Positions 10,347 through 37,243 of a stretch of DNA of 55,528 nt are shown here, one piece after another. This DNA is from Oscillospiraceae bacterium (lineage in GTDB: Bacteria; Bacillota; Clostridia; Oscillospirales; Ruminococcaceae), in NCBI GenBank assembly GCA_036667055.1, contig JAVWUR010000002.1:1-55528 (forward strand), given 5' to 3'. Made by a program: the position numbers and the translations under genes. Positions within the stretch are counted from its first letter, which is position 1. The number at the start of each line of letters is the position of its first letter. The notes below the pieces were generated by a model. The model ran no database searches. It had not been told where the DNA came from and saw only the letters and a list, made by a program, of their open reading frames with translations.

Positions 10347-10349
10347 TAT

Positions 10350-12105: not shown

Positions 12106-12151
12106 TACTTAATTACGGGCAAATTTTATAGCGCACAGTGCATCATAAATA

Positions 12152-12198
12152 CAAAAAAAGTCTTGGATAAAACTTTTGTTTTACTCAAGACTTTTTTA
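12152..12198. terminator. bidirectional intrinsic terminator
   Basis: Extended hairpin AGTCTTG-GA-TAAAAC tttt GTTTTA-CT-CAAGACT (12159-12192), flanked by A7 upstream and T6 downstream. Confidence 0.75.
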
Positions 12199-12259
12199 TT
12201 TTGGCAAAAGGATTTGCCGCTAAAAAGCTCTTGTCAGCGGCGCCGACACCGCACTAATT

Positions 12260-16654: not shown

Positions 16655-16675
16655 AGTCGTATCCTTTCAGAGCGG

Positions 16676-18220: not shown

Positions 18221-18258
18221 AAATACCTCGTAATAATAATAATTTGCACAACATTACT

Positions 18259-18330
18259 GTAACCCGCAATTTTTTACCCATTGCAGAGGGGTTACGCCTC
18301 TAATTTTAACACAAATAATATAAAAAACAA
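18259..18330 (-). promoter_or_regulatory. candidate MBOAT-operon promoter plus 5'-terminal stem-loop
   Basis: On the minus strand: TTGTTT (18330-18325), 16-nt spacer, TGtTAAAAT (-10 at 18308-18303). The predicted transcript begins at the hairpin GTAACCC-GCAAT...ATTGC-GGGGTTAC (18259-18295). Confidence 0.4.
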
Positions 18331-18362
18331 TAACAAGACTTTATTAATAAGCAAATTTACAC

Positions 18363-18391
18363 TTTATTAATAGGTCAATTTATGGTATACT
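18363..18391 (+). promoter_or_regulatory. candidate extended -10 promoter driving the GT-C leader
   Basis: TTTATT (18363-18368), 17-nt spacer, TGg-TATACT (18383-18391). It sits back-to-back with the MBOAT promoter. Confidence 0.45.
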
Positions 18392-18394
18392 AGC

Positions 18395-18546
18395 CTCACG
18401 GACGGCGTGGTAGCCGCTACGGCACTGGGAACAGTGCCTAGAAAAGCTAGCGCTTTTCCCCGTGAGAACATTTGACCGGCAAATTGCCCCACTGCGGTGT
18501 GGCAGCGGCACTGCCGCCATCACTAATCTGCGATTAGTGAATTTTG
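18395..18546 (+). promoter_or_regulatory. structured 5' leader (riboswitch-like, class unassigned) ending in a terminator-like hairpin
   Basis: Closing helix CTCACGG (18395-18401) pairs with CCGTGAG (18460-18466). It encloses GTAG-ccg-CTAC, GGCACTG-GGAA-CAGTGCC (GNRA loop) and CTAG-aaaag-CTAG. GC-rich hairpins follow at 18478-18517. Then TCACTAATC-tgc-GATTAGTGA is followed by ATTTT (18520-18545). The start codon is about 105 nt further on. Confidence 0.4.
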
Positions 18547-18651
18547 GGTATGATAATACATATTTCAATGAAAAAATGAAAAACAGACCATTGTTATGGC
18601 AAGGAATATTCCAGTTCACGGCAAAAATATTAAAGTAGGTAATGACACGAT

Positions 18652-21600
18652 ATGTTAACTCAACTGCTGATTTTAAGCGCATACACCGGTGTATGCATTT
18701 TGTTTTTAAGGCGAGGGATTTTTCAAGGCGGGGCAGACTTTAAATTCCCGAGAGCGCTATTTGCAGCCGCCATTATTGCAGCGTTTGCTATACGGATTTT
18801 TTTTGCGCTGTCACCACTTAACTTTTCCTACGATATAAACTGCTTTAAGGCGTGGAGCGGCTATGCCACCTCCCTTGGCTTTGGGCAGCTTTACGGTCAA
18901 GACTTTTTTCTTGATTATCCGCCGGGATATATGTACGTCCTCTTTGTGCTAAGAAGCATCGGGGATTTTTTCAAGCTCAATATTGACGGAATAATCTACA
19001 CCATGATGATTAAGCTGCCCTCCATAATAGCAGATTTTGGGTGTGGCTACCTTGTGTACAAAGTGGGACGAGAGACGCTAAATGACGGGCAGTCCAAGCT
19101 TTTGACATTGATTTTTCTGTTTTGCCCCGCCATTATTCACAACAGTAGTGTATGGGGACAGATAGACAGCTTTTACATATTTTTTGTAGCGCTCGCTATC
19201 TATTTTGCATATAAAAATAGGACGGTGCCTGCCGCTATAGCTTTCGCCTACGGCATTTTGGTAAAGCCACAGGCAATCTTTTTTGGGCCGATTTTCCTTT
19301 TCTATATTATTGAACGTCGCAGTGTAAAGGAATTTTTCAAGGCGGCAATTGCAGGGCTTGGTACCTTGTACCTTTTGGTTTTGCCATTTAGCCCCAATCC
19401 CTTTGACCTATCTTGGATAGTCACTTTATATAAGGATACCATGGGTGGGCTGCAATATTTTACGGTAAACGCATACAATTTATATGCCATTTTAGGGCTA
19501 AATTGGGTGGAATTAGACGCCGTCCGCAGCTCTTGGATGATAAATGTTGCCGTTATTTCCTCCTTGGTGGCTTTTGTCGGGTTTGCATTTTTAAAGCTAA
19601 AAGACAAGGCTAAGTTTTTTTATCTTTCGGGTTTTATAATACTGGTTGTCTTTTGCTTTACCACCATGATGCACGAAAGATATCTTTTCCCCGCCATCAT
19701 ATTTTTCCTCTTAGCTTTTTTACTAACAAAAAGGAAGAGCTTATTTTATATTTTTCTGGGGATAAGCGGCTTAAACTATATAAATTGTGTTGCGGTTATG
19801 CGCAGCTTTTTTAGCGACAGTCAGCTGTCACAATTTTTAATTACGCTGTTGTCACTGGCAGTTATCGCTTGCTTTGCGCTGTGTATTTATATGATTATCA
19901 AGCAGTTACACAAGACTAACTCACTCGATTTTTCTCTTGGCGCCAAGCACGGTATCGCCATTTTTGCACTCACCTGTGTTTATGGCGTTTTTGCATTATT
20001 TGACCTTGGCAGCTTTGATGCCCCACAAAGTTATTTTCTGTCCGGCGCCGACAATGTAAGCTTTGATGTGATATTTGACGAGCCGACAAACATTGCTTCC
20101 ATCTACTCTTTTAGCGGTGTAGGGGATGAATTTAGCGGTGACTTAGTGAAAAAAGCAACTTGTGATTTTGATATATACTATACACAGGACAACCAAAGCT
20201 TTCAACATCTTTTAACACTGGAGAAAAAAGATGTGTTTAAATGGGGGCAAGATGTATGCGATGTAGCCGCCTCCGGCATCAGGGTAGTTGCGGCTAACCC
20301 AGGGCAGGTGCTAGGGGAAATTTTGTTTCTTCGCCCTGATGGCTCCGTCATTAGTGGGCGGCTGGAAAACTATAATGTTAGTGCCGACTACCCAGCGGAA
20401 AATGCGCTGGATGAAAGCGAATGTCTCCCCGATGATTTAAGCTACTACAACAGCTCGTATTTTGACGAGATATACCATGCTCGAACGGCATATGAACAGC
20501 TACACGGATATTCTATCTACGAAACGACCCACCCTCCCCTTGGTAAAATTCTAATCAGCATAGGCATAAAAATATTTGGTATGACACCATTTGGATGGCG
20601 CATAGTGGGCGCTGTGTGCGGTATTGCCATGCTGCCAATATTCTACCTGTTAGCTCGTGGAATTTTCAAAAGCTTTTTTGCCGCCTTTGCCGCTACCTGC
20701 CTGTTGGCACTGGACTTTATGCATATAACCCAGACACGGATTGCAACGGTAGACACCTATGTAGTGTTTTTTACCATACTAACCTTCCTATTTATGCTCT
20801 ACTATCACAAAACAAAATTTACCGACAGTTTAAATAAACAGTTTCTATACTTAACGTTGAGCGGAATATTTATGGCGTGTGCAGTGGCGACAAAGTGGAA
20901 CGGCGCTTACTCAATGGTGGGTCTTGCCCTCTTCTTTTTTATAAGCCTATATGAAAAATATAAAAGCAGCGCTCGGGACAAGCTGTGCCGTGCCCGAGTG
21001 GCGAAAACAATTCTATTTTGCTTTGTGGCATTTGTTGGAATTCCGGTGGTTATCTATATTTTAACCTTTATACCGGTGGTTCACACAACCGGCATTTTTA
21101 ACTATCTAAAGGAAGTTTGGCGCTGTCAGGTGAATATGTTCAACTACCACTCAACCTTGGTGGCAGAGCACTTTTTCTCATCGCTGTGGTACACATGGCC
21201 CTTTACAGTAAAGCCAATATGGTACTCTATTACCATGCTGCCACAGGGCATGGCAAGCTCCATATCCGCCTTTGGCAACCCCTTAATTTGGTGGCTCACC
21301 CCCTTTGCAACGGTAGCCGCCGGTGTGCTTGCATACCGGAAAAAGGACAGCCGCCTGTGGCTTATCGTGCTGGGCTTTGTGTTTTCCTTGCTGCCATGGG
21401 TCTTTGTGACACGGCTAAGCTTTATCTACCATTATTTCCCCAGTGCAATTTTTGGAATACTTGCTATCGCCGCAGTGATAGATTGGATGGTTTCACGATA
21501 TCCAAAAAGTAAAAAGTATGGGGTGGTGTACCTGTTAGCCTGTCTTGCACTTTTCTTGGCGTTTGTGCCCATAACCACGGGGATAGCCGCACCTAATGGA

Positions 21601-21654
21601 TATCTTGAGTCACTGGAGTGGTTCCCCTCTTGGCATTTCATCAACACCAATTAA
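18652..21654 (+). CDS. fused double GT-C-fold membrane glycosyltransferase (N-terminal polytopic module, central soluble beta-rich domain, C-terminal GT39/PMT-like module)
   Basis: 1000 aa with more than 20 predicted TM segments. The second module carries the GT39 signature YFDEIYHARTAYE...THPPLGK (DNA 20458 onward). The first module has FSYDINCFKAW...LDYPPGYMY in its first loop. Residues about 450-600 are hydrophilic. Confidence 0.7.
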   Translation: MLTQLLILSAYTGVCILFLRRGIFQGGADFKFPRALFAAAIIAAFAIRIFFALSPLNFSYDINCFKAWSGYATSLGFGQLYGQDFFLDYPPGYMYVLFVLRSIGDFFKLNIDGIIYTMMIKLPSIIADFGCGYLVYKVGRETLNDGQSKLLTLIFLFCPAIIHNSSVWGQIDSFYIFFVALAIYFAYKNRTVPAAIAFAYGILVKPQAIFFGPIFLFYIIERRSVKEFFKAAIAGLGTLYLLVLPFSPNPFDLSWIVTLYKDTMGGLQYFTVNAYNLYAILGLNWVELDAVRSSWMINVAVISSLVAFVGFAFLKLKDKAKFFYLSGFIILVVFCFTTMMHERYLFPAIIFFLLAFLLTKRKSLFYIFLGISGLNYINCVAVMRSFFSDSQLSQFLITLLSLAVIACFALCIYMIIKQLHKTNSLDFSLGAKHGIAIFALTCVYGVFALFDLGSFDAPQSYFLSGADNVSFDVIFDEPTNIASIYSFSGVGDEFSGDLVKKATCDFDIYYTQDNQSFQHLLTLEKKDVFKWGQDVCDVAASGIRVVAANPGQVLGEILFLRPDGSVISGRLENYNVSADYPAENALDESECLPDDLSYYNSSYFDEIYHARTAYEQLHGYSIYETTHPPLGKILISIGIKIFGMTPFGWRIVGAVCGIAMLPIFYLLARGIFKSFFAAFAATCLLALDFMHITQTRIATVDTYVVFFTILTFLFMLYYHKTKFTDSLNKQFLYLTLSGIFMACAVATKWNGAYSMVGLALFFFISLYEKYKSSARDKLCRARVAKTILFCFVAFVGIPVVIYILTFIPVVHTTGIFNYLKEVWRCQVNMFNYHSTLVAEHFFSSLWYTWPFTVKPIWYSITMLPQGMASSISAFGNPLIWWLTPFATVAAGVLAYRKKDSRLWLIVLGFVFSLLPWVFVTRLSFIYHYFPSAIFGILAIAAVIDWMVSRYPKSKKYGVVYLLACLALFLAFVPITTGIAAPNGYLESLEWFPSWHFINTN

Positions 21655-21760
21655 TTGATAGTTAACACTAACGAAGCTTTCAAAGCTCACTCACCGTGAG
21701 TTAGACGATACTAACTAAACAACTAAAAGGTTAGCCACAATAGGTTAACGTATACTAACT

Positions 21761-21815
21761 AAATAAAAGCCCTCCCCCTTAAAGCAATTAAAAGGGGGAG
21801 GGCTTTGTGCTTTTT
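21761..21815. terminator. strong bidirectional intrinsic terminator between the GT-C gene and the hybrid kinase operon
   Basis: 12-bp GC-rich stem GCCCTCCCCCTT (21769-21780) pairs with AAGGGGGAGGGC (21792-21803). AAATAAAA lies upstream and TTTGTGCTTTTT downstream. Confidence 0.85.
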
Positions 21816-21942
21816 CAGCGGATATCTTTTCAGATTTTCGGCTTTTCAACTTTCGAATTTTCAGTTCTTCAGCTTTACAGCTTTACAGCTTTTCAGTTTT
21901 CGAATTTTCAGTTTTTCGACTTTTCAACTTTACAGCTTTTAG
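21811..21942. repeat. degenerate 7-9-nt tandem array, about 15 units, consensus CTTTTCAG (minus strand CTGAAAAG)
   Basis: Units read in order: tttttcag, (cggatat)cttttcag, attttcgg, cttttcaa, ctttcgaa, ttttcag, ttcttcag, ctttacag, ctttacag, cttttcag, ttttcgaa, ttttcag, tttttcgac, ttttcaa, ctttacag, cttttag. Confidence 0.85.
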
Positions 21943-21961
21943 TTGGTGCGGTCTGTTATGG

Positions 21962-24900
21962 CTACTGCTTTTGCAAAACTCTGGCTATAACATCATACAT
22001 GATGCCGGTGTCTATTGGCTTTGATATATGCCCATTCATTCCCGCAGACAGTGCAAGGGCAACATCTTCGGTAAAGGCGTTTGCTGTCATTGCAAATATT
22101 GGTATTGTTTTGGCTTGTGGGTGGTTGCCTGCCCTTATGGCTCGGGTGCTTGCATGGCCGTCCATAATGGGCATCTGAATATCCATAAGCACTATGTCAT
22201 AGTAGCCCTCGGGAGAGCGTTCAAACTTATCAAAAGCTATTTTTCCGTTTTCAGCTGGGTCTACATCAATGCCCGTCACTTTCAAAAGCTCGGTGGCAAT
22301 CTCCATATTTAGGGCGTTATCCTCCACTAAAAGCACCCGATGACCCTTAAAATCGTATTCGTCTCCAGACTTGTCTCCCTCAATATATTTGCCGCCGCTA
22401 AGGGAGGTAAGCATATTGAATACCGTGGACTGAAACACCGGCTTTGTTACAAACAGATTAGCACCGGCGTCCACCGCCTCACTTTCAACCTCGCTTAAAT
22501 CGTATGCGGATACAATTATAATAATGGTGTCATTGTCAAACTCTGCCCTTATTTTTTTGGTAAGAGTTATGCCGTCCATCTCGGGCATACGCCAGTCGAT
22601 AAAGCACAGGTCATACCCCTTACCTACGGTGTAGCTGTTGCGTATCTTGGTGAGCGCCTCCTCACCGCTAGTGGCGTACTCGTGGGGAACATTTAGCCGG
22701 CTGAGCACAATGGAGGTATACTCACAAGTCTCCTGATCATCATCCACTATAAGGGCGTTCAAATCTTCGAATTTTTTGCTTATATACTCCTGTCGCTTTT
22801 CTGGTATGCCAAAGGGCAAATCCACCGAAAAGGTAGTTCCTACTCCTTTTTCGCTCTCCACGGCAATTGCTCCATGCATCAAATCCACCAGATTTTTGGT
22901 GATGGACATTCCCAGCCCTGAACCGCCGTAGCGCTGCGCCGTGGAGGCAGTCTCCTGCTCAAAAGGATTAAAGACACGGGACATCATCTCCGTGGTCATT
23001 CCACAGCCGGTGTCGCTAACTACAAACCGTATAAAGGTTTGGGACTTGTTGTGGGGCGTTTGGGTGACAGATACTGTGATTTTGCCACCGCTCGGTGTGA
23101 ATTTCACAGCGTTGGACAGCAGGTTAAGCAATATTTGATGAACACGCAAGCTATCCCCAATCAGCACCTCATCGGTAATAGTGTTTATTTTGGCGGAAAA
23201 CTCTATATTTTTCTGCCTGCACTGACCGTAGTACATCAGTGTTATCGACTGCATAAGCTGCTTAAAATCAAAGGGTGCTGCCGCAATTTTCAGCTTGGAA
23301 TTTTCAATGGCAGACATATCCAAAACGTCATTTATAAGATTTAAAAGAATTTTTGAGGCGGTGGAAATCTTGTCCATGTTTTCCATCACTTGCTCGGGGC
23401 TGTTAACGTGCTGCTTTGTTATTGTGGTAAGCCCCACAATGGCGTTCATGGGGGTTCTAATCTCGTGACTCATACGTGCAAGAAATTGGCTTTTTGCACT
23501 GCTCGCCTGCTCTGCCTGAGCGATAGCCTTGACTAACTCGGTGTTTTTAAGGTTAATTTGCTTTAAGCTTTTCTGCTTGATTATTGCTGTTAAGGCAAGC
23601 AGACCTATGCAGACACACACCAGTATAGCAATAAGAGTTAGTAGTAACTTATATTTAAAAATCACATCACTCAAGGTCATTTTATAGGGCTTACCGAGAG
23701 TGTTATCTGTGACTAACTGGCTGAGCACATCATCCGACAAGGTTGCAATGGACTTGTCTATAATGGAGATTAGCCGTGGGTCGACATCAGACAGTGTGGC
23801 AAATCCGGTGTTTTCTTCCAAGTAGTAGGCAGGCACAATTTCCAGCCCATCATAGTGTGGGTTTTGCAGCAGATAGTTAAGGACATACACGTTTTGCAGC
23901 ATTATATCTGCCTCACCGTCCATGACCGCCTGCAAACATTGGTCATCGTTGGATTTATACACAATGTTATAATTTGGGTGAGTTTTACTTATGTAGTCCT
24001 GCATGGCTTGAAAAGATACCTTGGTAGTGACGTTTTGCGCTCGGTTTGGGTCGTAAACCGACCCATGTCGTGTGGCAATTGCAATGTTCGAGGTTAAAAA
24101 CGGCGTGGAGAGCCTAAGGGAGGAATCGTGCAAAAAGGTATCATTAATCACAATTCCGGCAACCATGTCAAACTTGCCCTCTCGCAGCAAATCCATAGGC
24201 TTTTTATCTACGGGCATAGGGCTTACATCAAAGTTAAGTCCACTGACTTCACCAATTTTCTTGACGATATCTACCGTTATTCCCTCTAGCTCCTTTGTGG
24301 ATTTATTGACACTGGACAGAGGATATCTGTTTGGCAAGCTGCCCACGGTTATAACGTCACAGCTGTCGATGTAGCTTACCTCCTCCCGTGTAAAGGCGGG
24401 GGTGCTTTCCGCTTTTGTTGCGGAGTAATATTTATGGTTGAGCTGTGCCTCAAAATCCTTGTTGTTCAGCTTGATTTTACCGACTGCCAAGTTCATTTCC
24501 TTCATAAAATCATTGCCGTCATAGCTCATAAGATAAAATGGCTCGCTGCCATATTTTCCAATTAGCTTTAAGTCATCATGAAGGGACATATGCTCGGTGG
24601 CGATGGCGGATATTTCTTTAGAAACAAGAGCCTTTTTCATCTCATCTTCTGTGGCGTAATACTTTTCCGTGAATACAAAATTATTGTTTTCCGCATAGTC
24701 TCGGAATGCCTCAATGGTGAGGTTGCCCTTCAAAAAGCCGATAGCTGCTCCGTTAAGACCGATAAAATCATCGTAATAAAGGGAGGAATTTTCCGGCAGC
24801 GTGTACAAAACCCCCTGCTCGGTGCCTATGGGGAATTTTGAATATTCAAACTTTTCATCTCGCTGTGGGGTATATTTAGCGGTGCACACTAGGTCAATCT

Positions 24901-25171
24901 CTTTATTTTCCAGCCGTGTCAAACACTCTTGCCAGGTGCCATATACATATTCGTACTCGAAATCAGCATATTTAGCCACCTCGCTTAGGTAGTCCACCCC
25001 ATACCCAGAATATGTCCCATCAGGGGCTTTGTCAATAAAAGATTGGTAGTCGATATAGCCTACTTTCAAGGTTTTAGCAGCCGGCTTTGCCCCAAAGACT
25101 GAAATTCCGGAAAAAATTGCTATCAAGACCGAGATTGCAAAGCAAGTAAGTTTTTTTGAAGTAGTTTTCAT
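21962..25171 (-). CDS. hybrid sensor histidine kinase: signal peptide, two SBP_bac_3-like periplasmic domains, TM, HisKA-HATPase, two receiver domains
   Basis: Start placed at ATG 25171 (MKTTSKK...), which overlaps the upstream stop as ATGA. H-box MSHEIRTPMNAI, G-box GGSGLGMSI, receivers with FIDWRMPEMDG and LMDIQMPIMDG. No HPt domain. Confidence 0.85.
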   Translation of the reverse strand: MKTTSKKLTCFAISVLIAIFSGISVFGAKPAAKTLKVGYIDYQSFIDKAPDGTYSGYGVDYLSEVAKYADFEYEYVYGTWQECLTRLENKEIDLVCTAKYTPQRDEKFEYSKFPIGTEQGVLYTLPENSSLYYDDFIGLNGAAIGFLKGNLTIEAFRDYAENNNFVFTEKYYATEDEMKKALVSKEISAIATEHMSLHDDLKLIGKYGSEPFYLMSYDGNDFMKEMNLAVGKIKLNNKDFEAQLNHKYYSATKAESTPAFTREEVSYIDSCDVITVGSLPNRYPLSSVNKSTKELEGITVDIVKKIGEVSGLNFDVSPMPVDKKPMDLLREGKFDMVAGIVINDTFLHDSSLRLSTPFLTSNIAIATRHGSVYDPNRAQNVTTKVSFQAMQDYISKTHPNYNIVYKSNDDQCLQAVMDGEADIMLQNVYVLNYLLQNPHYDGLEIVPAYYLEENTGFATLSDVDPRLISIIDKSIATLSDDVLSQLVTDNTLGKPYKMTLSDVIFKYKLLLTLIAILVCVCIGLLALTAIIKQKSLKQINLKNTELVKAIAQAEQASSAKSQFLARMSHEIRTPMNAIVGLTTITKQHVNSPEQVMENMDKISTASKILLNLINDVLDMSAIENSKLKIAAAPFDFKQLMQSITLMYYGQCRQKNIEFSAKINTITDEVLIGDSLRVHQILLNLLSNAVKFTPSGGKITVSVTQTPHNKSQTFIRFVVSDTGCGMTTEMMSRVFNPFEQETASTAQRYGGSGLGMSITKNLVDLMHGAIAVESEKGVGTTFSVDLPFGIPEKRQEYISKKFEDLNALIVDDDQETCEYTSIVLSRLNVPHEYATSGEEALTKIRNSYTVGKGYDLCFIDWRMPEMDGITLTKKIRAEFDNDTIIIIVSAYDLSEVESEAVDAGANLFVTKPVFQSTVFNMLTSLSGGKYIEGDKSGDEYDFKGHRVLLVEDNALNMEIATELLKVTGIDVDPAENGKIAFDKFERSPEGYYDIVLMDIQMPIMDGHASTRAIRAGNHPQAKTIPIFAMTANAFTEDVALALSAGMNGHISKPIDTGIMYDVIARVLQKQ

Positions 25172-28100
25172 TTCTTCTCCTCTTTTTTTTGCCCATAGAG
25201 ATAGCACTGGTTTTTGCCCAATTCCTTGGCTTTATAAAGAGCACTGTCTGCATTTTTATACAATTCATCATAACTAATATCAGTTCCGTCTGTGAGAGAA
25301 ATTCCAATGGAGCAGGTGACAGTTACATTGGCATTTTCCTTTAGCAGCTTTGCAATTCTTTTGCACAACACCTTGGCAAGATTTACCGCTAGCGCTTCAC
25401 TTGGCAAATCCTTAAGGAAAATTGCAAATTCATCCCCACCAAGCCTTGAAATTATATCACTGGTTCGCAAGGTAACGGTAAGTATCTCGCTGACTATCTT
25501 TAAAACCTCGTCACCTTTTTGGTGTCCAAAGGTGTCATTTATATATTTAAAATTGTCAATATCCAATATCAAAAAAGCACCTTGAAAAACCATGTCGGAA
25601 GAGATAAAAGCCTTTACCTCCCCTTCAAATACTCTGCGGTTATACAGCCCTGTCAAGGGGTCCTTTGTGGCTTTTTGGTTAAGGCTATCCAGCTTAGCTC
25701 GGGTTCTTGTTATGTCGATAAAGACACATTGGTATATCTTTTCCCCACCGGGGGTAACCACTAGCTGCACAGAAGCCTGTACCCATATAATGTCACGTTG
25801 CTTGGTAGCTATCTGGAATTCCACAGTGGTGGGCGTGCCGAGGGGCTGTTTGCTAAGGAACGCCACCTTTTCCTTAATAGCCGGAATAAATTTAGGCACT
25901 ATTATAGTTAATGGGTCACACTCGCCGTTCCAAAACTCATCTTTCGAGCTATAGCCTAAGATTTTAACCATCTCAAGATTGAGGTTTTTAATGGAAAAAT
26001 AACGGCTGCCGGAATGAAACTGGACTATGCCACAGGGGATGCTGTCATAGACATGCTCAAAAAAATCCTGCTGCTCCAAAAACTCGCTGCTGGCACGCTG
26101 TACCATTTCTTCCATATTTTTTTGGGCGGTTATATCGTTTACCTCTACCAGTAAAATTGCTCTTTCCCCATCGTTAAATATAATATTTATCTTGCATTTA
26201 AGCCATATTTCCTCCGCTTCATCCCTCAAACTCAACCATCTGTTTTCCGTCTCAATGTAACTGTTATCTTTACAGGTCTTGCAGATTAAATCGTAAAATT
26301 TTGGCTGTTCGTCCGGGGTCAGCCACGTCATAACATTGCTGTTGAGCTGGCTCATCCCACGATCGGTAAAGAAACCTATACTCCGTCCCAAGCTGTCGTT
26401 TCCACGGAGAAAGGACAGCTTGCCGTCTGCAAATTCCCACAGCGCAAGGGGCGCTGCGAACATTTTAAAGACGATGTTAAATTGGGAGGTGGGGTTCCAT
26501 ATTTCACTGTAGTCAAGCAGTTCCGAAAGGACGGCGTGGGTGGTTGCACCAACAGATACACCCTGATTTTCCATGGCTAATTTTTCATAGTCCTCTTGGG
26601 GCATGGGTCTTGCAAAATAATACCCCTGTCCCACACTGTAGCCGATACTGCGCAAAAAGCTTACCTGCTCTAGGGTTTCCACGCCCTCTGCCACCGTTTG
26701 AATGTCCAGCCATTTTGCTAAGGACACAATGAAATTCAAAATGTTTCGTTGACCGGAAAATGCATTCTTGCTCTGCAAAAAGCGCATATCCAGCTTGATG
26801 ACATCCACAGGCACGTCACTTAGCATATTCAAGGAGGAGTACCCCGAGCCAAAATCGTCCATCTCAATGGTAAAGCCCATCTTCTTTAAATCATTTATCG
26901 TCTTTATCAGTTCCTCGGCGTTGTCAATGTAAGAGTTTTCCGTTATCTCCAGCTCCAAAAATCTTGGCTCTATTCGGTATTTGTTTATTAGCTCCTGCAA
27001 AAAGCTGCAAAGCTGAGGGTTGTAAACATCCACTCTCGACACGTTTACCGATATGGGCAGCGGCACCTTTCCCTGGTCTAAAACCTTGCGCAGATGCTGA
27101 CATACACATTCCCATATGTGGAAATCCACAGCGGAAATAAAGCCGTTTTTTTCAAAAAGCTCAATAAATCTTTGGGGCGGTATAATGCCCTTTGTGGGGT
27201 GAATCCAGCGAATAAGCGCCTCGGCACCCACAATTTCACCGGTAATAAGGTTGTATTTAGGCTGATAATAGGGTATAAACTGCCCTTGGGTCAGTGCGCT
27301 GCGCATCTGGCTTATTATCTCCTGCTCCTCAATAAGACGTTTGCGATGGCTGTCATCATACAGGGCAACTGTAGCGTCAAACTTCCCTTTTATCGACTGA
27401 ATTGCAAGCTTTGAGCGGTCACACATACCGCTGATGGGAAGGGTAATATCGTCCACCACATAGATGCCGAATTTAAAATTCAACTTTAAATTGATAGAAT
27501 ATCGGTGGATAAATTTTTCCACCGTGTCGGTGAGCACAGTGCCTATCTTCGGATAATAGGGCATACACAGACCAAAAATATCTCCGCTTATCCGTGCGCA
27601 GATGGAGATGTCCGGTGTGGTTATTGTACATAGCTCCCGAGCTATCGCCTTTAAAAGCTGATCCCCCTCCGCAGTGCCCCACAGCTCGTTTACCAGCTTA
27701 AAATGTTCTATATCCATGCAGATTATGGCATATTGCGTTGTGCTATTACTCTCCATAAGCTCATGAGACTTTACAAAAAAAGTTTCTTGGTTGTATATTC
27801 CCGTCAGCGCATCTCGCTCCACCGTGTTGCGCAAAACCGAATTTTCCTTTAGATGCAGGATGTTTTCAAGGCGCTTTAAAATAACCCGTGGGCGGTACGG
27901 CTTTGCAATAAAGTCAGTCGCCCCTAGGGATAACGCCTCTAGCTCCGTATCTTCACAATCATTTTGAGTGGTGACAATCACAGGGATATTATAGTGCAGC
28001 AGCAAATCCTTTGCCAGCTCCATAAACGTAAAGCCATCCATCACAGGCATAGCAAGGTCTAGCAAAATGGCGCTGATACTATTTGCCTCTTGTTTTAACA

Positions 28101-28224
28101 ATTCCAGCGCCTCGCTGCCATTTTCCGCCTGTAAAATATTGTAGTCTCCTGACAATATCTTTTCCAGCAAGCAGCGATTTACCATATTGTCATCGACTAT
28201 CAATATGTTGGGCTTGTTCGTCAT
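25168..28224 (-). CDS. response regulator with c-di-GMP output: REC, degenerate GGDEF, EAL, PAS-PAS, GGDEF
   Basis: 1018 aa. REC (ILIVDD ... LLDLAMPVMDG ... FIAKP). First cyclase-like domain has SGDIF in place of GGDEF. EAL is intact (GAEALIRW, NVSRV, EITEN, MDDFGSGYSS, KLDMR, AEGVET, GQGYYF). C-terminal domain has RTSD followed by SRLGGDEF. Confidence 0.85.
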   Translation of the reverse strand: MTNKPNILIVDDNMVNRCLLEKILSGDYNILQAENGSEALELLKQEANSISAILLDLAMPVMDGFTFMELAKDLLLHYNIPVIVTTQNDCEDTELEALSLGATDFIAKPYRPRVILKRLENILHLKENSVLRNTVERDALTGIYNQETFFVKSHELMESNSTTQYAIICMDIEHFKLVNELWGTAEGDQLLKAIARELCTITTPDISICARISGDIFGLCMPYYPKIGTVLTDTVEKFIHRYSINLKLNFKFGIYVVDDITLPISGMCDRSKLAIQSIKGKFDATVALYDDSHRKRLIEEQEIISQMRSALTQGQFIPYYQPKYNLITGEIVGAEALIRWIHPTKGIIPPQRFIELFEKNGFISAVDFHIWECVCQHLRKVLDQGKVPLPISVNVSRVDVYNPQLCSFLQELINKYRIEPRFLELEITENSYIDNAEELIKTINDLKKMGFTIEMDDFGSGYSSLNMLSDVPVDVIKLDMRFLQSKNAFSGQRNILNFIVSLAKWLDIQTVAEGVETLEQVSFLRSIGYSVGQGYYFARPMPQEDYEKLAMENQGVSVGATTHAVLSELLDYSEIWNPTSQFNIVFKMFAAPLALWEFADGKLSFLRGNDSLGRSIGFFTDRGMSQLNSNVMTWLTPDEQPKFYDLICKTCKDNSYIETENRWLSLRDEAEEIWLKCKINIIFNDGERAILLVEVNDITAQKNMEEMVQRASSEFLEQQDFFEHVYDSIPCGIVQFHSGSRYFSIKNLNLEMVKILGYSSKDEFWNGECDPLTIIVPKFIPAIKEKVAFLSKQPLGTPTTVEFQIATKQRDIIWVQASVQLVVTPGGEKIYQCVFIDITRTRAKLDSLNQKATKDPLTGLYNRRVFEGEVKAFISSDMVFQGAFLILDIDNFKYINDTFGHQKGDEVLKIVSEILTVTLRTSDIISRLGGDEFAIFLKDLPSEALAVNLAKVLCKRIAKLLKENANVTVTCSIGISLTDGTDISYDELYKNADSALYKAKELGKNQCYLYGQKKEEKK

Positions 28225-28371
28225 CTTACACTCCTTTAAACTCTACAGCTATGTAATGTCGGCTGAATAAAGCGAAAACGCAGTTATATCAATCACTTTC
28301 ACCTGCGTTTGCTCTTTGGGCAGATGTGCCTTGAAAAGTGCATTTGTTCAGTAGATATTATATAATATATA

Positions 28372-28400
28372 ATTTTACATCTTTTAAGTAGAAAATACAA
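28372..28400 (-). promoter_or_regulatory. candidate promoter of the REC/kinase operon
   Basis: On the minus strand: TTGTAT (28400-28395), 17-nt spacer, TAAAAT (28377-28372). This predicts a leader of about 140 nt containing the hairpin AAACGCAG (28276-28283) / CTGCGTTT (28303-28310). Confidence 0.35.
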
Positions 28401-28485
28401 CATATTATTACCTATCCCGGCTATCAAAATGTCTGCCCTTTGGCGGCTATACTTTAACGCACATTGTGACGGCAATAATATACTG

Positions 28486-28514
28486 TTGATTTTTCTAAAG
28501 ACAGATGGTATAAT
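28486..28514 (+). promoter_or_regulatory. near-consensus promoter of the ABC exporter operon
   Basis: TTGATT (28486-28491), 17-nt spacer ending in TGG, TATAAT (28509-28514). Confidence 0.65.
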
Positions 28515-28516
28515 GC

Positions 28517-28538
28517 TATTTAGACACATATCTAAATA
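28517..28538. promoter_or_regulatory. perfect 8-bp inverted repeat (candidate operator) at the predicted transcription start
   Basis: TATTTAGA (28517-28524), spacer cacata, TCTAAATA (28531-28538). It begins 3 nt after the -10 hexamer. Confidence 0.4.
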
Positions 28539-28559
28539 AATATTAAAAGGAATAATACA

Positions 28560-29261
28560 ATGATAAAAATTGAAGGCTTGACAAAATGTTATGGCAATAA
28601 AAACGCAGTAGAAAATCTGTCATTACAGGTAAATGCCGGGGAGCTGTTTGGCTTTATCGGGCCTAACGGAGCCGGCAAAACCACCACTCTAAAGGCAATC
28701 AGCGGAATTTTAGATTTTGATGGGGGCGATATCTTTATAATGGGCTGCTCCATAAAAACCGAACCTATAAAAGCAAAGCGAAACATCGCCTACATTCCCG
28801 ACAATCCGGATATTTACAGCTACATGAAGGGTATTGACTACCTTAATTTCATAGCGGATATATACGGCACCGACATGGAAAAGCGTGGGGAGCTAATAGG
28901 GGATTATGCCGCACAATTTGAAATTTTAGATGTTTTAAATATGCCAATCGGCGGATATTCTCATGGAATGAAACAGAAGCTTGCTATAATTTCTGCCCTT
29001 ATTCACAGCCCTAAGGTGCTGATTTTGGACGAGCCTTTCGTGGGGCTTGACCCCAAAGCCAGCCACACTTTAAAACAGCTAATGCGAAAGCTTTGCGACG
29101 AGGGGGGCTGCATATTTTTCTCCACCCACGTTTTGGAGGTCGCCCAAAGTATCTGTGATAAAATTGCAATAATAAAACAGGGCAAGCTGGTGGTTCAGGG
29201 CGATACCCACAGCGTTTGCAGCGAAAAAAGCCTTGAAGAAATATTTATGGAGCTGGTGTAG
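28560..29261 (+). CDS. ABC transporter ATP-binding protein
   Basis: 233 aa. Walker A GPNGAGKTT, signature YSHGMKQKL, Walker B LILDEPFVGLD, H-loop STH. Confidence 0.9.
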   Translation: MIKIEGLTKCYGNKNAVENLSLQVNAGELFGFIGPNGAGKTTTLKAISGILDFDGGDIFIMGCSIKTEPIKAKRNIAYIPDNPDIYSYMKGIDYLNFIADIYGTDMEKRGELIGDYAAQFEILDVLNMPIGGYSHGMKQKLAIISALIHSPKVLILDEPFVGLDPKASHTLKQLMRKLCDEGGCIFFSTHVLEVAQSICDKIAIIKQGKLVVQGDTHSVCSEKSLEEIFMELV

Positions 29262-29263
29262 CT

Positions 29264-30868
29264 ATGCAAATATTGAAAAAATTGCTTAAAAATGAACTTT
29301 ACAGTCTTTTGAACATGAATAATATGTTTGATACTACAAAGGGCAGAATGAAAAGCCCCGTGCTTGTGACCATAGGCGCACTGCTGTTTGGCGGTCTGTT
29401 GATGGTGCTCAGCGGAATGTACAGCTATCTTTTTGCACTCAGCCTTATCCCCATAGGCGCTATGCACATTCTGCCGGTGGTGATGTTTGCGGCGGGCAGC
29501 TTGGTGGTGTTTTTCTACGGTGCTCTGCGCAGCAGCGGAGCGCTGTTTAACTCAAACGACTACGATTTGCTTATGAGCCTGCCTATACCCCACTCCACCA
29601 TCATATTGGCAAAGCTTATAGCCCTGTATCTTTCCGACCTTGTATTCTCATCGCTTTTCATGCTGCCCTGCCTTGGGGTGTGGTGGTATTTTCAGCGTCC
29701 GGACTTTATTAGCCTTGCGCTGGCGCTTTTGTGCCTGCCATTTATACCTGCCATCCCCATAATTTTAGCCACCATCATCGGAACTACAGTGGCATTTTTA
29801 GCGGGGCGCTCTCGCCACAAAGCACTGGTGAGCATACTGGCAAATTTAGCACTGGTGTTCGGCGCCATGGGGCTTGTTATGATGTTGGAAAAATCTGCCA
29901 ACCCCGAGATGGTAATTGGCGGATATACTATGGCTATGCAGGAGCTGGTTCTCGCCCAATACCCACCGGCACGGCTGTTTTTCAGCGCTAGTCAAGGGAA
30001 CGTTATGGGCTTTATCGCCTTTGCCCTCATATCCATGGCGGTGCTTGCGGTATTTACATTTTTGGTGGCAAGGGTATTTAAATCCATCCATTCAAAGCTC
30101 GCAAGTGTCACCATGAAAGCCTCCACAGCAAAGCTTGCGTATTCAAAAAGTGGCAGCTTTGCCGCTCTTTTAAAGCGAGAGCTTCGCCGCTTTTTGTCCT
30201 CAAGCGTCTACTTTATCAACTGCGGTATCGGCGCTTTAATGGGGCTTGGAGGGCTTATCTATGTTGTGCTTTTTGGGGGAGAATATATCGAGCTAATCAA
30301 CGCCACCCCCATGATTTACCCCACTGTTTTGGCTATCCTTCCAACCGTTGCCGGAATTTTCTCCTCCATTAGCTGCACTAGCGCCGTGAGCGTATCCCTA
30401 GAGGGGCAAAGCCTGTGGGTGATAAAGCAGCTGCCAGTCAGCGGCTACAGCGTATTTATCTCTAAAATTATATTCAATTTATTTTTGACGGTGCCCGTCA
30501 GCCTGTCCATCTCGATAGCAGGGATTTTTATGCTGAATATCCGTGGATTTTACGCTTTAATTGTATTGATATATCCTCTTATAGTGTGCGTATTTATGGC
30601 ATATGCAGGTCTGGTGGTCAACTTAAAGTTCCCCAGTTTTAACTGGACAAGTGAAACTAAGGTTGTAAAGCAAAGCGCCTCAATGGGCATTGTCACCGTC
30701 TGTGGAATGGCGCTTGCAGGAGTGACCTTTTCCCTTGTAACCTTTGTTTTTTCACAGGAAAATGCATACATAGCCTATCTTATAGCCGCCATTACAATGT
30801 CGGCGGCGGTGTTTGTGTGGAACGGTTACCTGAAAAAGAATAGCGAGAGGATATTGCTGAGATTTTAA
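29264..30868 (+). CDS. polytopic ABC exporter permease (putative ABC-exporter / ABC-2-like family)
   Basis: 534 aa with about 12 TM segments. Starts 2 nt after the ATPase stop. No recognisable substrate-specific motif. Confidence 0.6.
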   Translation: MQILKKLLKNELYSLLNMNNMFDTTKGRMKSPVLVTIGALLFGGLLMVLSGMYSYLFALSLIPIGAMHILPVVMFAAGSLVVFFYGALRSSGALFNSNDYDLLMSLPIPHSTIILAKLIALYLSDLVFSSLFMLPCLGVWWYFQRPDFISLALALLCLPFIPAIPIILATIIGTTVAFLAGRSRHKALVSILANLALVFGAMGLVMMLEKSANPEMVIGGYTMAMQELVLAQYPPARLFFSASQGNVMGFIAFALISMAVLAVFTFLVARVFKSIHSKLASVTMKASTAKLAYSKSGSFAALLKRELRRFLSSSVYFINCGIGALMGLGGLIYVVLFGGEYIELINATPMIYPTVLAILPTVAGIFSSISCTSAVSVSLEGQSLWVIKQLPVSGYSVFISKIIFNLFLTVPVSLSISIAGIFMLNIRGFYALIVLIYPLIVCVFMAYAGLVVNLKFPSFNWTSETKVVKQSASMGIVTVCGMALAGVTFSLVTFVFSQENAYIAYLIAAITMSAAVFVWNGYLKKNSERILLRF

Positions 30869-30933
30869 GGGGCAAGAAAAAAGGGCACAAGACGATTTTT
30901 CTCTTTCGTCTCATTCCCCCACATAAGTAGGTA

Positions 30934-30973
30934 AAATAGCCCAAGCTTTCAATTGCGAAAGCTTGGGCTATTT
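30934..30973. terminator. bidirectional intrinsic terminator between the ABC operon and the cyclase gene
   Basis: Perfect 17-bp stem AAATAGCCCAAGCTTTC (30934-30950) pairs with GAAAGCTTGGGCTATTT (30957-30973). Loop AATTGC. Confidence 0.85.
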
Positions 30974-30974
30974 G

Positions 30975-31042
30975 TATATCTATGCATTTATTTGCGCATT
31001 TATCCATGCATTTATCTATGCATCTATTTGTGTATGTATCCT
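30975..31042. repeat. 12-nt degenerate tandem array, about 5 units (GCATTTAT core)
   Basis: GCATTTA at 30984, 30996 and 31008, GCATCTA at 31020, GTATGTA at 31032. The period is exactly 12 nt. Confidence 0.85.
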
Positions 31043-31058
31043 GTACAGTGTAAAAAAA

Positions 31059-33554
31059 TCATATGGCAAATTGATTTTTACCGTTATTCTTTGCCCGATA
31101 CAAAGCTTGGTCAGCATTTTTATACAAAGGGATGAAACCATCTCCGTCCTTGGGGTAAAAAGCAATTCCGGCGGATATGGATAGGCTCATGGCGCTACAT
31201 TCTATAAGCGAGACTTTATCCACTATGGTTTGGGCACGCCTGCGTATTGGCTCTTCGTCCCATACGCCGGGCATATATACGATAAACTCGTCGCCCCCAA
31301 GCCTTGCAACAATGTCTTTATCTCGAAACAGCGCCGACAGAGCATCTGCCACGCTTATGAGCATATCATCTCCGGCACTGTGTCCCATCGTGTCATTGAT
31401 GGACTTAAAATCGTCAATATCTATAATGAATAAAGCGCCTGTAGGGACGTCTGCCATAAGATTTTGGATTAAAGCTTCGGCGGTTCTCCGATTGTAAAGA
31501 CCCGTTAAAGTGTCTTTTTTAGCAAGATTTTCAATTTCCAGCAGCTTGTTTTTCTCACTGTTAATGTCGGATAAAACTCCAATTACAGTGATTATTTTTC
31601 CATTTTCATCCACCACAGCGGAGGAGCGGCTGCGGCACCAAAAGTAAGCGTCCTCACGGTTTTTTAAACGATATTCCCCCACAGCGCACAGTGCGCCCTT
31701 ATCATAGCTTCGATATAATTCCAGATAGGTGTCCACATCGTCGGGATGAATGTTGCAAACTACCTTAGGGTTTACGGGGAAATCTTCCCCTACGGCGGTG
31801 CGCTGGAGATACAATTCAAAGTTTTTTGAATATTCAATTTCCTTTGTCTGATAGTTCCACTCAAAGATAATATCCTTTGTTTGAGACATAACCAGTTCAT
31901 AGCGTTTTTGCTGTAAGGAGAGCTGGTCATTGATTTTTTTAAGGCTGAGGGCGCTCTTTTTTCGCCCGTCAGAGATCTTTATCACTAGGAAAAAGCATAA
32001 CGCCACAATAAAAGCCAATAGGAGCGTTTCTACCCCATATTGGTACAGCGTGTCGGAAGCGTTGGGCACATAGCTTGCATTGGCAATTTGAGCGATAACA
32101 ATGTCCTCCACCGTCTCCTTTGGGAGCACAGAGATGGACTTATTTATAACGGACATCAAGGTGGGGTCGTCACCATTAAGCCCCACTATTACCTCCGGCT
32201 CTACAATGGAGTATCCGGAAAACGCCTTTAGCTTGGAAAACGCCGGCTTTTGCAGATAGTAGGAGGCAAGGTATTCATCGCACATGATAACGTCTGCGTC
32301 CCCTCTAAAAACCGAGTAAAAACCCTCCAAAATAGAGTCTACCGGCACAGGGACAAGATTGGGGTACTCTTTTGACAGATAATAATTTGTAGCCTTTGCG
32401 GTTTTTGGGGCGGCAACTCGCAGTGCATTTTCCGTGTCAAGCAGAGGGTTTGACCTGCCTACAAACACCATTTTGCTGGTGAAATAAGGGGTAGATATTC
32501 TGAAATTGCTATTTTTAAAATAATCGCCTAAATCGGGCGGGCCACACACAATGCGAGTTTCTCCGCTTAAAAGAGTGTCCGTCAAGGCGATATTTTGGGT
32601 TATCGGCACATACTCAAAAGTCAGTCCGGAAATTTTTCCAAGCTCATTTAAAAGGCTGTAATTTATACCCGATGGCTCTCCGGTTTTAGAGTTTACAAAG
32701 GATATGGGAATTCTGTCCGACCATATCGCCACCTTTACAGGGGCGCATTTTTGAATAAAATCGTGCTCTTGACGGGTGAACATGGGCTGGGTTGCCGCAA
32801 GGCTGTTGCTATAATATTTCTTATATAATGCGCCGTCAAATTCCGGTGTGTCCGACTTGATGGCACTCAGCGCCCGAACCAAGGAGGGGTATAGCCCCGA
32901 ATTGTTAGCCGTCAAAATATATATGGGGTTGGAGCCATGCTTGGCAATTAATTTCAAGTTGTCATAGGGGGCAAGATGGACGGTGGAAATAATATCCACC
33001 TCGCCATCATACAGCGCCTTTTCCATGGCATCATCGCTTGTAAAATATATGGGGGTAAAGCTAAACCCGTTTCGCTGAGAATATTCCTTTAGGAAATGGC
33101 TGTTGGCACTGCCCTCAATAACCCCGATGAGCTTGCCGTCAAAGCCCTCAAAATCATCAAAATACAAATCCGTTTCGGGCAGGCAGTACAGTACAAACTG
33201 TTCGATGCCGATAGAGTATTGTGAAAGAGAAAAATCTTCCTTAACACGGCGGCTTTGGGTGGCGTTGCACATCAAATCCACCTCGCCCGACTGAAGCTTG
33301 TCCAGCACCGAGCCCCACTCACAGTAAACATATTCATAGTTCCAGTTGGTATAACGGGCAATCTCCTGTAGGTAGTCAACCCCATAGCCGGAAAATTCTC
33401 CGCTCTCTGTCTTTTGAATAAAATTGTAATAATCGGTATATCCTACCCGCACCTTGCGTGGCGTATAATCGTCCCCTTGAAGGGCATAGGCAGGCAGCGA
33501 CAACGCCAAACAAAAAAACAGCATCGCTGCGAAAATATTTACAAGCTGTTTCAT
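31059..33554 (-). CDS. diguanylate cyclase with dual SBP_bac_3-like periplasmic sensor, TM, PAS and GGDEF
   Basis: 831 aa. Signal peptide. The sensor region is paralogous to that of the hybrid kinase (shared SGYGVDYL, YEYVY, LKLI, KYYS blocks). PAS domain has IIFEWNYQTKE...IHPDD...YDKGA. RDKD I-site followed by ARLGGDEF. Confidence 0.85.
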   Translation of the reverse strand: MKQLVNIFAAMLFFCLALSLPAYALQGDDYTPRKVRVGYTDYYNFIQKTESGEFSGYGVDYLQEIARYTNWNYEYVYCEWGSVLDKLQSGEVDLMCNATQSRRVKEDFSLSQYSIGIEQFVLYCLPETDLYFDDFEGFDGKLIGVIEGSANSHFLKEYSQRNGFSFTPIYFTSDDAMEKALYDGEVDIISTVHLAPYDNLKLIAKHGSNPIYILTANNSGLYPSLVRALSAIKSDTPEFDGALYKKYYSNSLAATQPMFTRQEHDFIQKCAPVKVAIWSDRIPISFVNSKTGEPSGINYSLLNELGKISGLTFEYVPITQNIALTDTLLSGETRIVCGPPDLGDYFKNSNFRISTPYFTSKMVFVGRSNPLLDTENALRVAAPKTAKATNYYLSKEYPNLVPVPVDSILEGFYSVFRGDADVIMCDEYLASYYLQKPAFSKLKAFSGYSIVEPEVIVGLNGDDPTLMSVINKSISVLPKETVEDIVIAQIANASYVPNASDTLYQYGVETLLLAFIVALCFFLVIKISDGRKKSALSLKKINDQLSLQQKRYELVMSQTKDIIFEWNYQTKEIEYSKNFELYLQRTAVGEDFPVNPKVVCNIHPDDVDTYLELYRSYDKGALCAVGEYRLKNREDAYFWCRSRSSAVVDENGKIITVIGVLSDINSEKNKLLEIENLAKKDTLTGLYNRRTAEALIQNLMADVPTGALFIIDIDDFKSINDTMGHSAGDDMLISVADALSALFRDKDIVARLGGDEFIVYMPGVWDEEPIRRRAQTIVDKVSLIECSAMSLSISAGIAFYPKDGDGFIPLYKNADQALYRAKNNGKNQFAI

Positions 33555-35978: not shown

Positions 35979-36133
35979 AAAGGTAAGGGCAAGAGAATGT
36001 TGGTTTACCCTTTATTTTAAAGGGGATATATGGTAGAATAATAGATAATAACTGAAAAATGGCATAATAAGTAGCAGTTAACCGATTGATGGTTTAATAG
36101 AGAAAAATGAGTATATAAAGGAGTTTGCCGATT

Positions 36134-37243
36134 ATGAAATATTGCAAAAAGTGCACCATGCCCGACACACGGCCGGGGATAGTTTTTGACGAGGAGGGCG
36201 TATGCAGTGCCTGCCGTCACTATGAAAAACGCAAAACAATAGATTGGGACAAACGCTGGAAAGAGTTAGAGGCACTGTGTGATAAATACCGTGGGTGCAA
36301 CGGCGAGGGTCAGTACGATTGTGCCATTGCAGCGTCCGGCGGCAAGGACAGCCATTTCCAAGTGTATATAATGAAAGAGGTTATGAAAATGACCCCTATA
36401 TTGTTCTCTGCGGAGGACAATTTCCCCATGACCGAGGCAGGTAAGCACAACTTGAAAAACATAAGCGAGGAGTTCGGCTGCCCTATAATAAGCTGCAAGC
36501 CCGACATCAAGACCCAGAAAATTTTGATGCGTGCCTGCTTTGAAAAGTATGGCAAGCCCACTTGGTACCTTGACCGCCACATCTACACCTTCCCCTTGCA
36601 CATGGCACTGAAATTTAACACCATGCTGCTTGTGTATGGTGAAAACGTGAGCTATGAATACGGCGGCAGCAGTGACGAGGAAACCTACAGTGCACGAGGA
36701 CAGGTGGAAAATGGAGTGGCAAGCGGAATGGACGAAAAAGAGCTGCTATCCTTTGGGATAGAGCCGTCCGCACTGGCACTGACAAGAGCGCCATCACCGG
36801 AGGATTTAGCACGGCTTGACCCGATGTATCTAAGCTATTTTATGCCGTGGAACAGCTATAAAAACTATCAATTGGCAAAGTCTCGTGGCTTTCACGATTT
36901 GACCCATGAATGGGACAGAACCCACCACGCAGAAAATTTTGACCAGATTGATTCAAGGGCGTACCTTGTTCATTCATGGCTTAAATATCCAAAATTCGGC
37001 CACGCCGCCGCAACGGATTATACCGCACGATACATCAGATACGGTATGCTCACACGCAGCGAGGCGGTGAAGATTATAAGGGAAAAGGACGGTGCTCTTG
37101 ACCCACTTTGCGTTCGGGATTTCTGCGAGTTTTGCGGCTATACGGAAAAGGAATTTTGGGCGATTATCGACAAATTTTACAACAGGGACATCTTTAGAAA
37201 AGACGAGATGGGTCGCTGGGTGTTAAAACAGCCTATAGAATAG
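36134..37243 (+). CDS. N-acetyl sugar amidotransferase (WbuX/WbpG/PseA family, PP-loop ATPase)
   Basis: 369 aa from ATG 36134 (AAAGGAG RBS). N-terminal zinc ribbon CKKCTMPDTRPGIVFDEEGVCSAC, PP-loop SGGKDS, conserved C-terminal FGHAAATDY block. Confidence 0.75.
   Translation: MKYCKKCTMPDTRPGIVFDEEGVCSACRHYEKRKTIDWDKRWKELEALCDKYRGCNGEGQYDCAIAASGGKDSHFQVYIMKEVMKMTPILFSAEDNFPMTEAGKHNLKNISEEFGCPIISCKPDIKTQKILMRACFEKYGKPTWYLDRHIYTFPLHMALKFNTMLLVYGENVSYEYGGSSDEETYSARGQVENGVASGMDEKELLSFGIEPSALALTRAPSPEDLARLDPMYLSYFMPWNSYKNYQLAKSRGFHDLTHEWDRTHHAENFDQIDSRAYLVHSWLKYPKFGHAAATDYTARYIRYGMLTRSEAVKIIREKDGALDPLCVRDFCEFCGYTEKEFWAIIDKFYNRDIFRKDEMGRWVLKQPIE

Follow-up and report, generated by a model that had tools for sequence, protein, structure and literature searches.

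The 55,528-nt stretch of DNA analysed here (the window), from contig JAVWUR010000002.1 of the Oscillospiraceae bacterium assembly GCA_036667055.1, carries five long open reading frames (ORFs) between positions 21962 and 33554. Three of these, coding for a hybrid sensor histidine kinase, a composite response regulator and a membrane diguanylate cyclase, are located on the minus strand, and the two genes of an ATP-binding cassette (ABC) exporter are located on the plus strand between the regulator and cyclase genes. A sequence-only reading had proposed that these genes form a single, undescribed sensory system, in which one extracellular cue acts on cyclic di-GMP (c-di-GMP) by two routes, a direct one via the cyclase and a phosphorelay from the kinase to the regulator. 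The cyclase gene runs from 33554 to 31059 and codes for a protein of 831 aa, identical to MEG3028858.1 of an Oscillospiraceae metagenome-assembled genome. The regulator gene (28224 to 25168) codes for 1018 aa and the kinase gene (25171 to 21962) for 1069 aa counted from its ATG, with an alternative GTG start at 25207 that would fall within the regulator gene. The ABC exporter locus (28560-30868), assigned on the basis of Pfam matches and synteny, comprises a DrrA-like ATPase (28560-29261, 233 aa) and a permease with 12 transmembrane (TM) helices (29264-30868, 534 aa), and is separated from the regulator gene by a divergent intergenic region (28225-28559). No equivalog-level NCBIfam name is available for any of the five proteins, the permease being without any match, and an exact-sequence look-up of the regulator found no record.

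The kinase (21962-25171) consists of a signal peptide, two Venus flytrap domains (VFT1 and VFT2), a TM helix at residues ~507-531, a helical linker, HisKA, HATPase_c and two receivers (REC1 and REC2). Pfam recognises two SBP_bac_3 stretches, HisKA (559-624), HATPase_c (672-787) and two Response_reg domains (~800-917 and 946-1058). Among 24 homologs H569 is invariant, and the receiver residues D859/K910 of REC1 and D997/K1051 of REC2 are invariant or nearly so. No Pfam match to PAS occurs between the TM helix and HisKA, and no Pfam Hpt match was obtained for the kinase, which terminates in the two Response_reg domains. The BvgS family comprises more than 11,000 members, approximately 30% of which lack a PAS domain and use a coiled-coil linker X (PMC5829827). 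The domain content, the homologs and matches to structural profiles predict that the window kinase is a PAS-less hybrid kinase of this family, with a helical linker to the dimerisation and histidine phosphotransfer (DHp) domain. It resembles BvgS and EvgS in the succession of signal peptide, tandem flytraps, single TM helix, linker into the DHp and catalytic (DHp-CA) core and receiver, but differs in ending in REC-REC rather than REC-HPt, in its Firmicute host and in the lack of an adjoining DNA-binding partner such as BvgA or EvgA. When a profile of ten sensors was compared with solved structures, the periplasmic moiety of BvgS (4q0c) was the best match (E 2.6e-42), followed by EvgS (9ilw, E 2.3e-24), the tandem substrate-binding domains (SBDs) of GlnPQ and, more weakly, CdgH (5gzs, E 6.8e-8).

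The cyclase (31059-33554), identified from Pfam matches, motifs and the sensor tree, likewise begins with a signal peptide, VFT1, VFT2 and a TM helix, followed by PAS and GGDEF domains. Pfam detects two SBP_bac_3 stretches, PAS_3 and GGDEF, and the GGDEF motif is intact at residue 753 within RDKD-x5-GGDEF, which includes an RxxD I-site. The architectures previously read from the sequence for the kinase and the cyclase are both confirmed by Pfam and motifs. In CdgH of Vibrio cholerae, a cytoplasmic GGDEF domain follows two N-terminal substrate-binding domains in the periplasm and a TM helix (PMC5431781). The window cyclase shares the two periplasmic PBPb domains, the TM helix and an intact GGDEF motif. 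It differs in that a PAS domain separates the TM helix from GGDEF, in a sensor that is far closer to those of the BvgS-type kinases and in a VFT1 without the canonical arginine. It is predicted to be an independent one-component receptor of the CdgH kind.

The sensor regions of the kinase and the cyclase are paralogous, as had been claimed. BLASTP aligns them over 534 aa (34% identity, 55% positives, E 7e-100), in a stretch that begins with the signal peptide, extends past the TM helix and includes the blocks SGYGVDYL, YEYVY, LKLI..GS and KYYS. Generic SBP_bac_3 domains are far less alike, so the sequence-only reading is not refuted on this count. That both sensors belong to one subfamily (34% identity to each other, against 23-26% to other sensors with two substrate-binding protein (SBP) domains) is a point in favour of an integrated four-gene system, in which a single cue would feed c-di-GMP via the cyclase and via the kinase-regulator phosphorelay, the ABC exporter included. 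So are the location of all the genes within 12 kb in the window species and the retention of both paralogs in three of the three relatives where they were searchable. The window cyclase sensor is, however, no nearer to the sensor of its neighbouring kinase (34% identity) than to those of kinases from other genomes (35-37%), which implies that the duplication predates the spread of the kinase family. In a neighbour-joining tree of 57 sensor regions, the cyclase clade, comprising the window protein and three orthologs, is nested within the radiation of kinase sensors, and GGDEF-EAL proteins with the same sensor are found on several other branches, indicating that the output domain has been swapped repeatedly in this sensor family. 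The duplication behind the window pair is judged from these comparisons to be old, not recent. A recent duplication of the sensor within the genome was considered and is ruled out by the tree and the identity matrix.

The two sensors also differ at the canonical arginine. VFT1 of the kinase contains TPQR, which aligns with the TDER motif of the GlnPQ SBDs, and R104 is retained in at least 90% of the kinase homologs, whereas the cyclase clade has V or N in this column. We take the canonical SBP_bac_3 arginine in this column to be the residue that binds the ligand carboxylate, as in amino-acid-binding SBPs such as HisJ/LAO. The V or N of the cyclase argues against a ligand common to both sensors, and the cyclase ligand probably differs from that of the kinase. 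The proposal that the same extracellular cue reaches both outputs is unsupported, since the paralogs split before the kinases diversified and differ at this residue.

Gene order was compared with three relatives, represented by samples ERR14026134 and ERR13998532 (relative A), samples SRR29713734, SRR29713747 and SRR29713748 (relative B) and the assembly GCA_036654635.1 (relative C). Full-length cyclase orthologs (~50-62% identity) are encoded in all three at another locus, always followed by genes for NfeD and Band_7 proteins and never beside the ABC or kinase genes. The NfeD and Band_7 genes are missing from the corresponding position in the window (the 30869-31058 side), and on the upstream side the cyclase genes of A and B are flanked by aldose epimerase and GDSL lipase genes, as in the window. 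In locus L006, from a relative, the 7 kb past the ABC genes code for hydrogenase subunits, with no cyclase. Gene order in the relatives places a rearrangement breakpoint specific to the window species at the ABC/cyclase junction (30868/31059, that is, within 30869-31058), and the closeness of cyclase and kinase stems from this rearrangement. Among the relatives examined, the four-gene layout of kinase, regulator, ABC exporter and cyclase is found only in the window species. The neighbourhood is thus not conserved, and missing synteny was among the outcomes that the sequence-only reading had itself named as counting against it. With synteny lost in A, B and C, a cyclase sensor no closer to its own kinase than to foreign ones and the divergent VFT1 arginine, a single system including all of these genes appears highly improbable. 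A REC-PAS-GGDEF regulator of 425 aa is encoded in relative B (L094, 8453-9730) approximately 1.7 kb beyond the cyclase ortholog, past the NfeD and Band_7 genes.

A further argument against the integrated system is the separate, conserved promoter region of the ABC exporter, which has an operator-like element. The ABC genes of relatives A and B adjoin the kinase gene, with ATPases 82-84% identical to that of the window, and the window spacer (28225-28559) is homologous to the ABC–kinase spacer of both relatives, sharing with it a palindrome near the ABC start and an AT-rich promoter-like block. The promoter-like site of the ABC genes reads TTGATT-17-TGgTATAAT, with an extended -10 at 28506-28514. 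It is directly followed by the perfect palindrome TTTAGACACATATCTAAA (TTTAGA-N6-TCTAAA; 28519-28536, plus strand), located 24 nt before the ABC start codon. The palindrome occurs once in the window and is kept in two relatives (L004 and L006); a single match of this kind is not statistically unusual, being reached in 32 of 100 shuffles, and its support lies in the conservation. Promoter and terminator scans of the window showed no excess over shuffled sequence (25 vs 25.3 and 12 vs 13.5, respectively), and only the conservation-supported ABC site was used from the promoter scan. The sequence-only reading was correct in placing an exporter with an operator-like promoter between the sensor genes. 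The palindrome, a putative operator with no regulator gene for it adjacent, probably controls the ABC operon rather than the signalling genes, and the ABC genes look like an ordinary repressor-controlled efflux operon. Nothing links the exporter to signalling, and we do not count it among the signalling components. Transcription of the regulator and kinase genes presumably also starts from a promoter within 28225-28559. A Bce-like partnership in sensing between exporter and kinase was considered and ruled out, as the two are linked only in close relatives and the exporter has its own operator.

The regulator (25168-28224), assigned by Pfam and motif inspection, comprises a REC domain (residues 7-119) in which D11/D12, D56 and K108 are present, a degenerate GGDEF domain (GGDEF*, with SGDIF at 213), an EAL domain (306-540) with a complete motif set (EAL335, N394, EITE, DDFG, KLD and EGVE) and a C-terminal GGDEF domain (853-1006) carrying RTSD-x5-GGDEF, i.e. 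an I-site. These domains agree with the earlier description of the protein as REC-GGDEF*-EAL-PAS-PAS-GGDEF, but the two PAS domains are less secure, with the stretch at 748-839 scoring marginally below the Pfam cut-off (26.9 vs 27 bits) and a second PAS-like stretch at ~600-700 being sub-threshold (E 0.015). The combination REC-GGDEF-EAL is common to thousands of Clostridia homologs of the regulator, which is predicted to be a REC-controlled bifunctional c-di-GMP enzyme. In the homologs P0031 and P0058 the REC-GGDEF-EAL part is fused to HisKA and HATPase_c in single polypeptides of 1368-1486 aa.

The operon begins with the regulator gene, followed by the kinase gene, and the stop codon of the former and the start codon of the latter overlap as ATGA at 25168-25171 (...GAAGAAATGAAAACT), with AGGAG upstream. 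The overlap had been recognised previously, but with the two genes in the reverse order. This arrangement predicts a translationally coupled pair. RocS1 of P. aeruginosa, which has two periplasmic SBP_bac_3 domains, controls the REC-EAL protein RocR (PMC12051241), and ArrS of A. veronii, a dual periplasmic SBP/PBP2 kinase, controls the REC-EAL protein ArrR, with arrS and arrR being co-transcribed and the phosphorylation of ArrR by ArrS inhibiting its phosphodiesterase (PDE) activity (PMC11841396). The VieSAB system of V. cholerae likewise includes a sensor kinase and a REC-EAL regulator within one operon (PMC4352251). The window resembles the Roc and Arr systems in encoding a dual-SBP kinase and a REC-EAL-containing regulator together. 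RocS1 and ArrS, however, have a cytoplasmic PAS domain and a fused HPt domain (PMC12051241, PMC11841396), whereas the window kinase has neither and carries two receivers instead, and RocR and ArrR are plain REC-EAL proteins, whereas the window regulator adds a degenerate GGDEF domain, PAS-like regions and an intact GGDEF domain. The relay through HPt of the Roc, Arr and Vie systems has no counterpart in cis in the window, the regulator gene comes first and the pairing is not kept in the nearest relatives A and B. With RocS1/RocR and ArrS/ArrR (PMC12051241, PMC11841396), VieS/VieA (PMC4352251) and CdgH (PMC5431781) published from Proteobacteria, the wiring is not undescribed. All the parts prove genuine but belong to known types, and together they arguably make a minor variant rather than a new system, with the differing features being the Firmicute origin, the REC-REC terminus without HPt, the composite regulator and the regulator-first order.

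Similar pairings occur in more distant lineages. A metagenome scan seeded with sensor motifs yielded 53 loci, which were annotated with domain probes derived from the window, some being checked with Pfam. In L100 (JGI Ga0208436_1004, positions 1-13200 of a 715-kb contig), the end of a hybrid kinase gene is followed by two Hpt genes, a GGDEF gene, a REC-GGDEF*-EAL-REC gene, two tandem dual-SBP hybrid kinase genes, a PAS-GGDEF gene and a further Hpt gene, with the first dual-SBP kinase gene overlapping the regulator gene; this cluster is a more complete form of the arrangement in the window. The order in L128 is kinase, REC-GGDEF*-EAL-PAS and Hpt; a REC-GGDEF*-EAL gene is located ahead of the dual-SBP gene in L140, and genes for an Hpt and a REC protein are located upstream of the kinase gene in L125. 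Three loci encode kinase homologs with ~50% identity, among which L090 has the order kinase, REC-GGDEF and Hpt, L092 has kinase and Hpt, and no partner gene was seen in L091. The first three domains of the window regulator are 44% and 36% identical to the L100 and L128 regulators, respectively. L090, L100 and L128 thus share with the window the kinase family (sensor identity of 22-50%), the REC-GGDEF*-EAL family (36-44%) and the adjacent or overlapping genes, but contain one to three stand-alone Hpt genes, whereas none is found near the kinase gene in the window, A or B. Dual-SBP hybrid kinases beside predicted REC-c-di-GMP enzymes are recurrent in unrelated contigs, usually with a stand-alone Hpt, and because a like pairing recurs in L090, L100, L128 and L140, a functional link between regulator and kinase is plausible. 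A scan of representative genomes with kinase-core patterns (MSHEIRTP and NDVLDMS) returned generic hybrid kinases from many phyla, and only four loci (L023-L026) also matched the sensor, with 28-31% identity.

The reading preferred here, to which we give about an even chance, is that the window encodes two separate c-di-GMP input devices, a regulator-kinase operon and a lone cyclase, which are neighbours by chance in the window species. The sequences show the architectures, the catalytic and phospho-acceptor residues, the paralogy, the gene overlap, the missing synteny and the recurrence of similar clusters elsewhere, while each step of the signalling route, its sign and its ligands are inferred. 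In the BvgS family, the kinase or phosphatase mode depends on flytrap closure, which is transmitted along the TM helix and a coiled-coil linker (PMC5829827, PMC4352136). By analogy, a periplasmic ligand would close or open the flytrap lobes of the window kinase, and the TM helix and coiled-coil linker would relay this change to the DHp domain, shifting the balance between kinase and phosphatase at H569. Phosphate would then pass onto the kinase's own receivers, at D859 and/or D997, and may reach D56 of the regulator either via an unlinked stand-alone Hpt or directly from H569. Phosphorylation of the regulator REC domain would tip the balance between the EAL phosphodiesterase and the C-terminal GGDEF cyclase, moving c-di-GMP up or down. 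In the second device, the flytrap pair of the cyclase would control dimerisation and activity of its GGDEF domain, with the I-site providing product inhibition.

Several observations weigh against the pairing of regulator and kinase in the first of these devices. In A and B, where the kinase orthologs are 63% and 59% identical, no regulator gene lies between the ABC and kinase genes, the kinase gene directly following the ABC-divergent spacer; the kinase must have another partner there, and possibly here too. The closest regulator homologs with genomic context (49%, 42% and 40% identity) have no such kinase alongside. In the 55-kb window no Hpt was found by phmmer with two Hpt proteins, and a profile of six kinase-linked Hpt proteins, run with filters off against all frames, gave a best E of 6.6. 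The same profile recovered the L125 Hpt, on which it had not been trained, at 4e-18, as well as the fused HPt domains of L023 and L025. The A, B and C loci likewise yielded no Hpt. The phosphorelay from kinase to regulator proposed earlier is therefore plausible as a pairing, but within the 55 kb it is without an HPt component in cis, either in the kinase or as a separate gene, and an unlinked Hpt elsewhere in the genome is possible. In only approximately five of about 25 kinase-type metagenome loci did the domain probes detect a c-di-GMP or Hpt neighbour, as counted by eye and without de-replication. Finally, c-di-GMP genes are numerous in the genome, three of them being in the window, so that mere adjacency says little. 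L009, the closest full-length homolog of the regulator (49% identity), is followed by a gene that does not code for a kinase of the dual-SBP family.

These observations could also be explained if the regulator is adjacent to the kinase without being its partner, having been inserted behind the kinase promoter in this lineage, with the kinase acting through an unlinked Hpt and regulator, as it must in A and B, and the regulator responding to another kinase. The absence of the regulator from A and B despite a homologous spacer, the lack of such kinases beside the nearest regulator homologs and the lack of a nearby Hpt all agree with this explanation. The ATGA overlap and good ribosome-binding site, however, imply co-expression at a fixed ratio, and a like pairing has arisen or persisted in the distant lineages of L100, L128, L140 and L090. 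A 2.3-kb fragment from relative C or a close neighbour of it also encodes a probable regulator ortholog (P0255, 63% identical across residues 157-917), so the gene is no very recent arrival; the kinase and regulator of C are seen only on fragments of 1.8-2.3 kb. An unpartnered regulator is accordingly rated as possible, though somewhat unlikely. The fragments P0255 (MEG2082757.1) and P0266 (MEG2082814.1) overlap and are 63% and 97.7% identical to the window protein, respectively; their neighbouring accession numbers suggest that the bin holds two paralogs or mixes two related species.

A further explanation is that the kinase partners are its neighbours in a larger block, comprising the ABC exporter, a PMT-like protein, an MBOAT protein and a PAS-GGDEF-EAL protein, with a role in envelope or exopolysaccharide control and the regulator as a late add-on. 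In the window this block includes genes for a PAS-GGDEF...EAL protein of 1464 aa (12260-16654, minus strand), an MBOAT acyltransferase (16676-18220, minus strand) and a PMT/GT87-like glycosyltransferase of 1000 aa (18652-21654, plus strand). The order GlmS–PAS-GGDEF-EAL–MBOAT–PMT–kinase–ABC in A and B is colinear with window positions 12260-30868, at 50-84% protein identity, the PAS-GGDEF-EAL protein of A and B being 1466 aa long. Colinearity is, however, restricted to close relatives and may reflect inherited gene order, the kinase homologs with ~50% identity in L090, L091 and L092 lack these neighbours, and no DNA-binding regulator is present to tie the kinase to the block. This explanation is considered unlikely. 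The colinear 12260-21654 block may nevertheless hint at c-di-GMP control of envelope or exopolysaccharide modification. Beyond the cyclase gene, an ORF of 372 aa (36125-37243) has no Pfam match at E 0.001.

The two-device reading leaves the window with a variant of known receptor types, and the value of the analysis lies mainly in annotation, with labels for the kinase, the regulator and the CdgH-like receptor cyclase. It also illustrates that adjacency is weak evidence for a system in genomes dense in GGDEF and EAL genes, since a species-specific rearrangement produced the apparent system here. More speculatively, and with considerable doubt, the Clostridia may contain a widespread, uncharacterised class of c-di-GMP phosphorelays in which PAS-less BvgS-type kinases with twin receivers and no HPt signal through small stand-alone Hpt proteins to REC-GGDEF*-EAL(-PAS-GGDEF) regulators, the regulator gene of the window species being coupled directly to that of the kinase, with the paralogous cyclase sensing a related ligand so that two cues converge. 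The L090, L100 and L128 clusters represent a better experimental entry than the window, because they carry the whole relay in cis, into c-di-GMP signalling in the uncultured gut and rumen Oscillospiraceae, where it has barely been studied.

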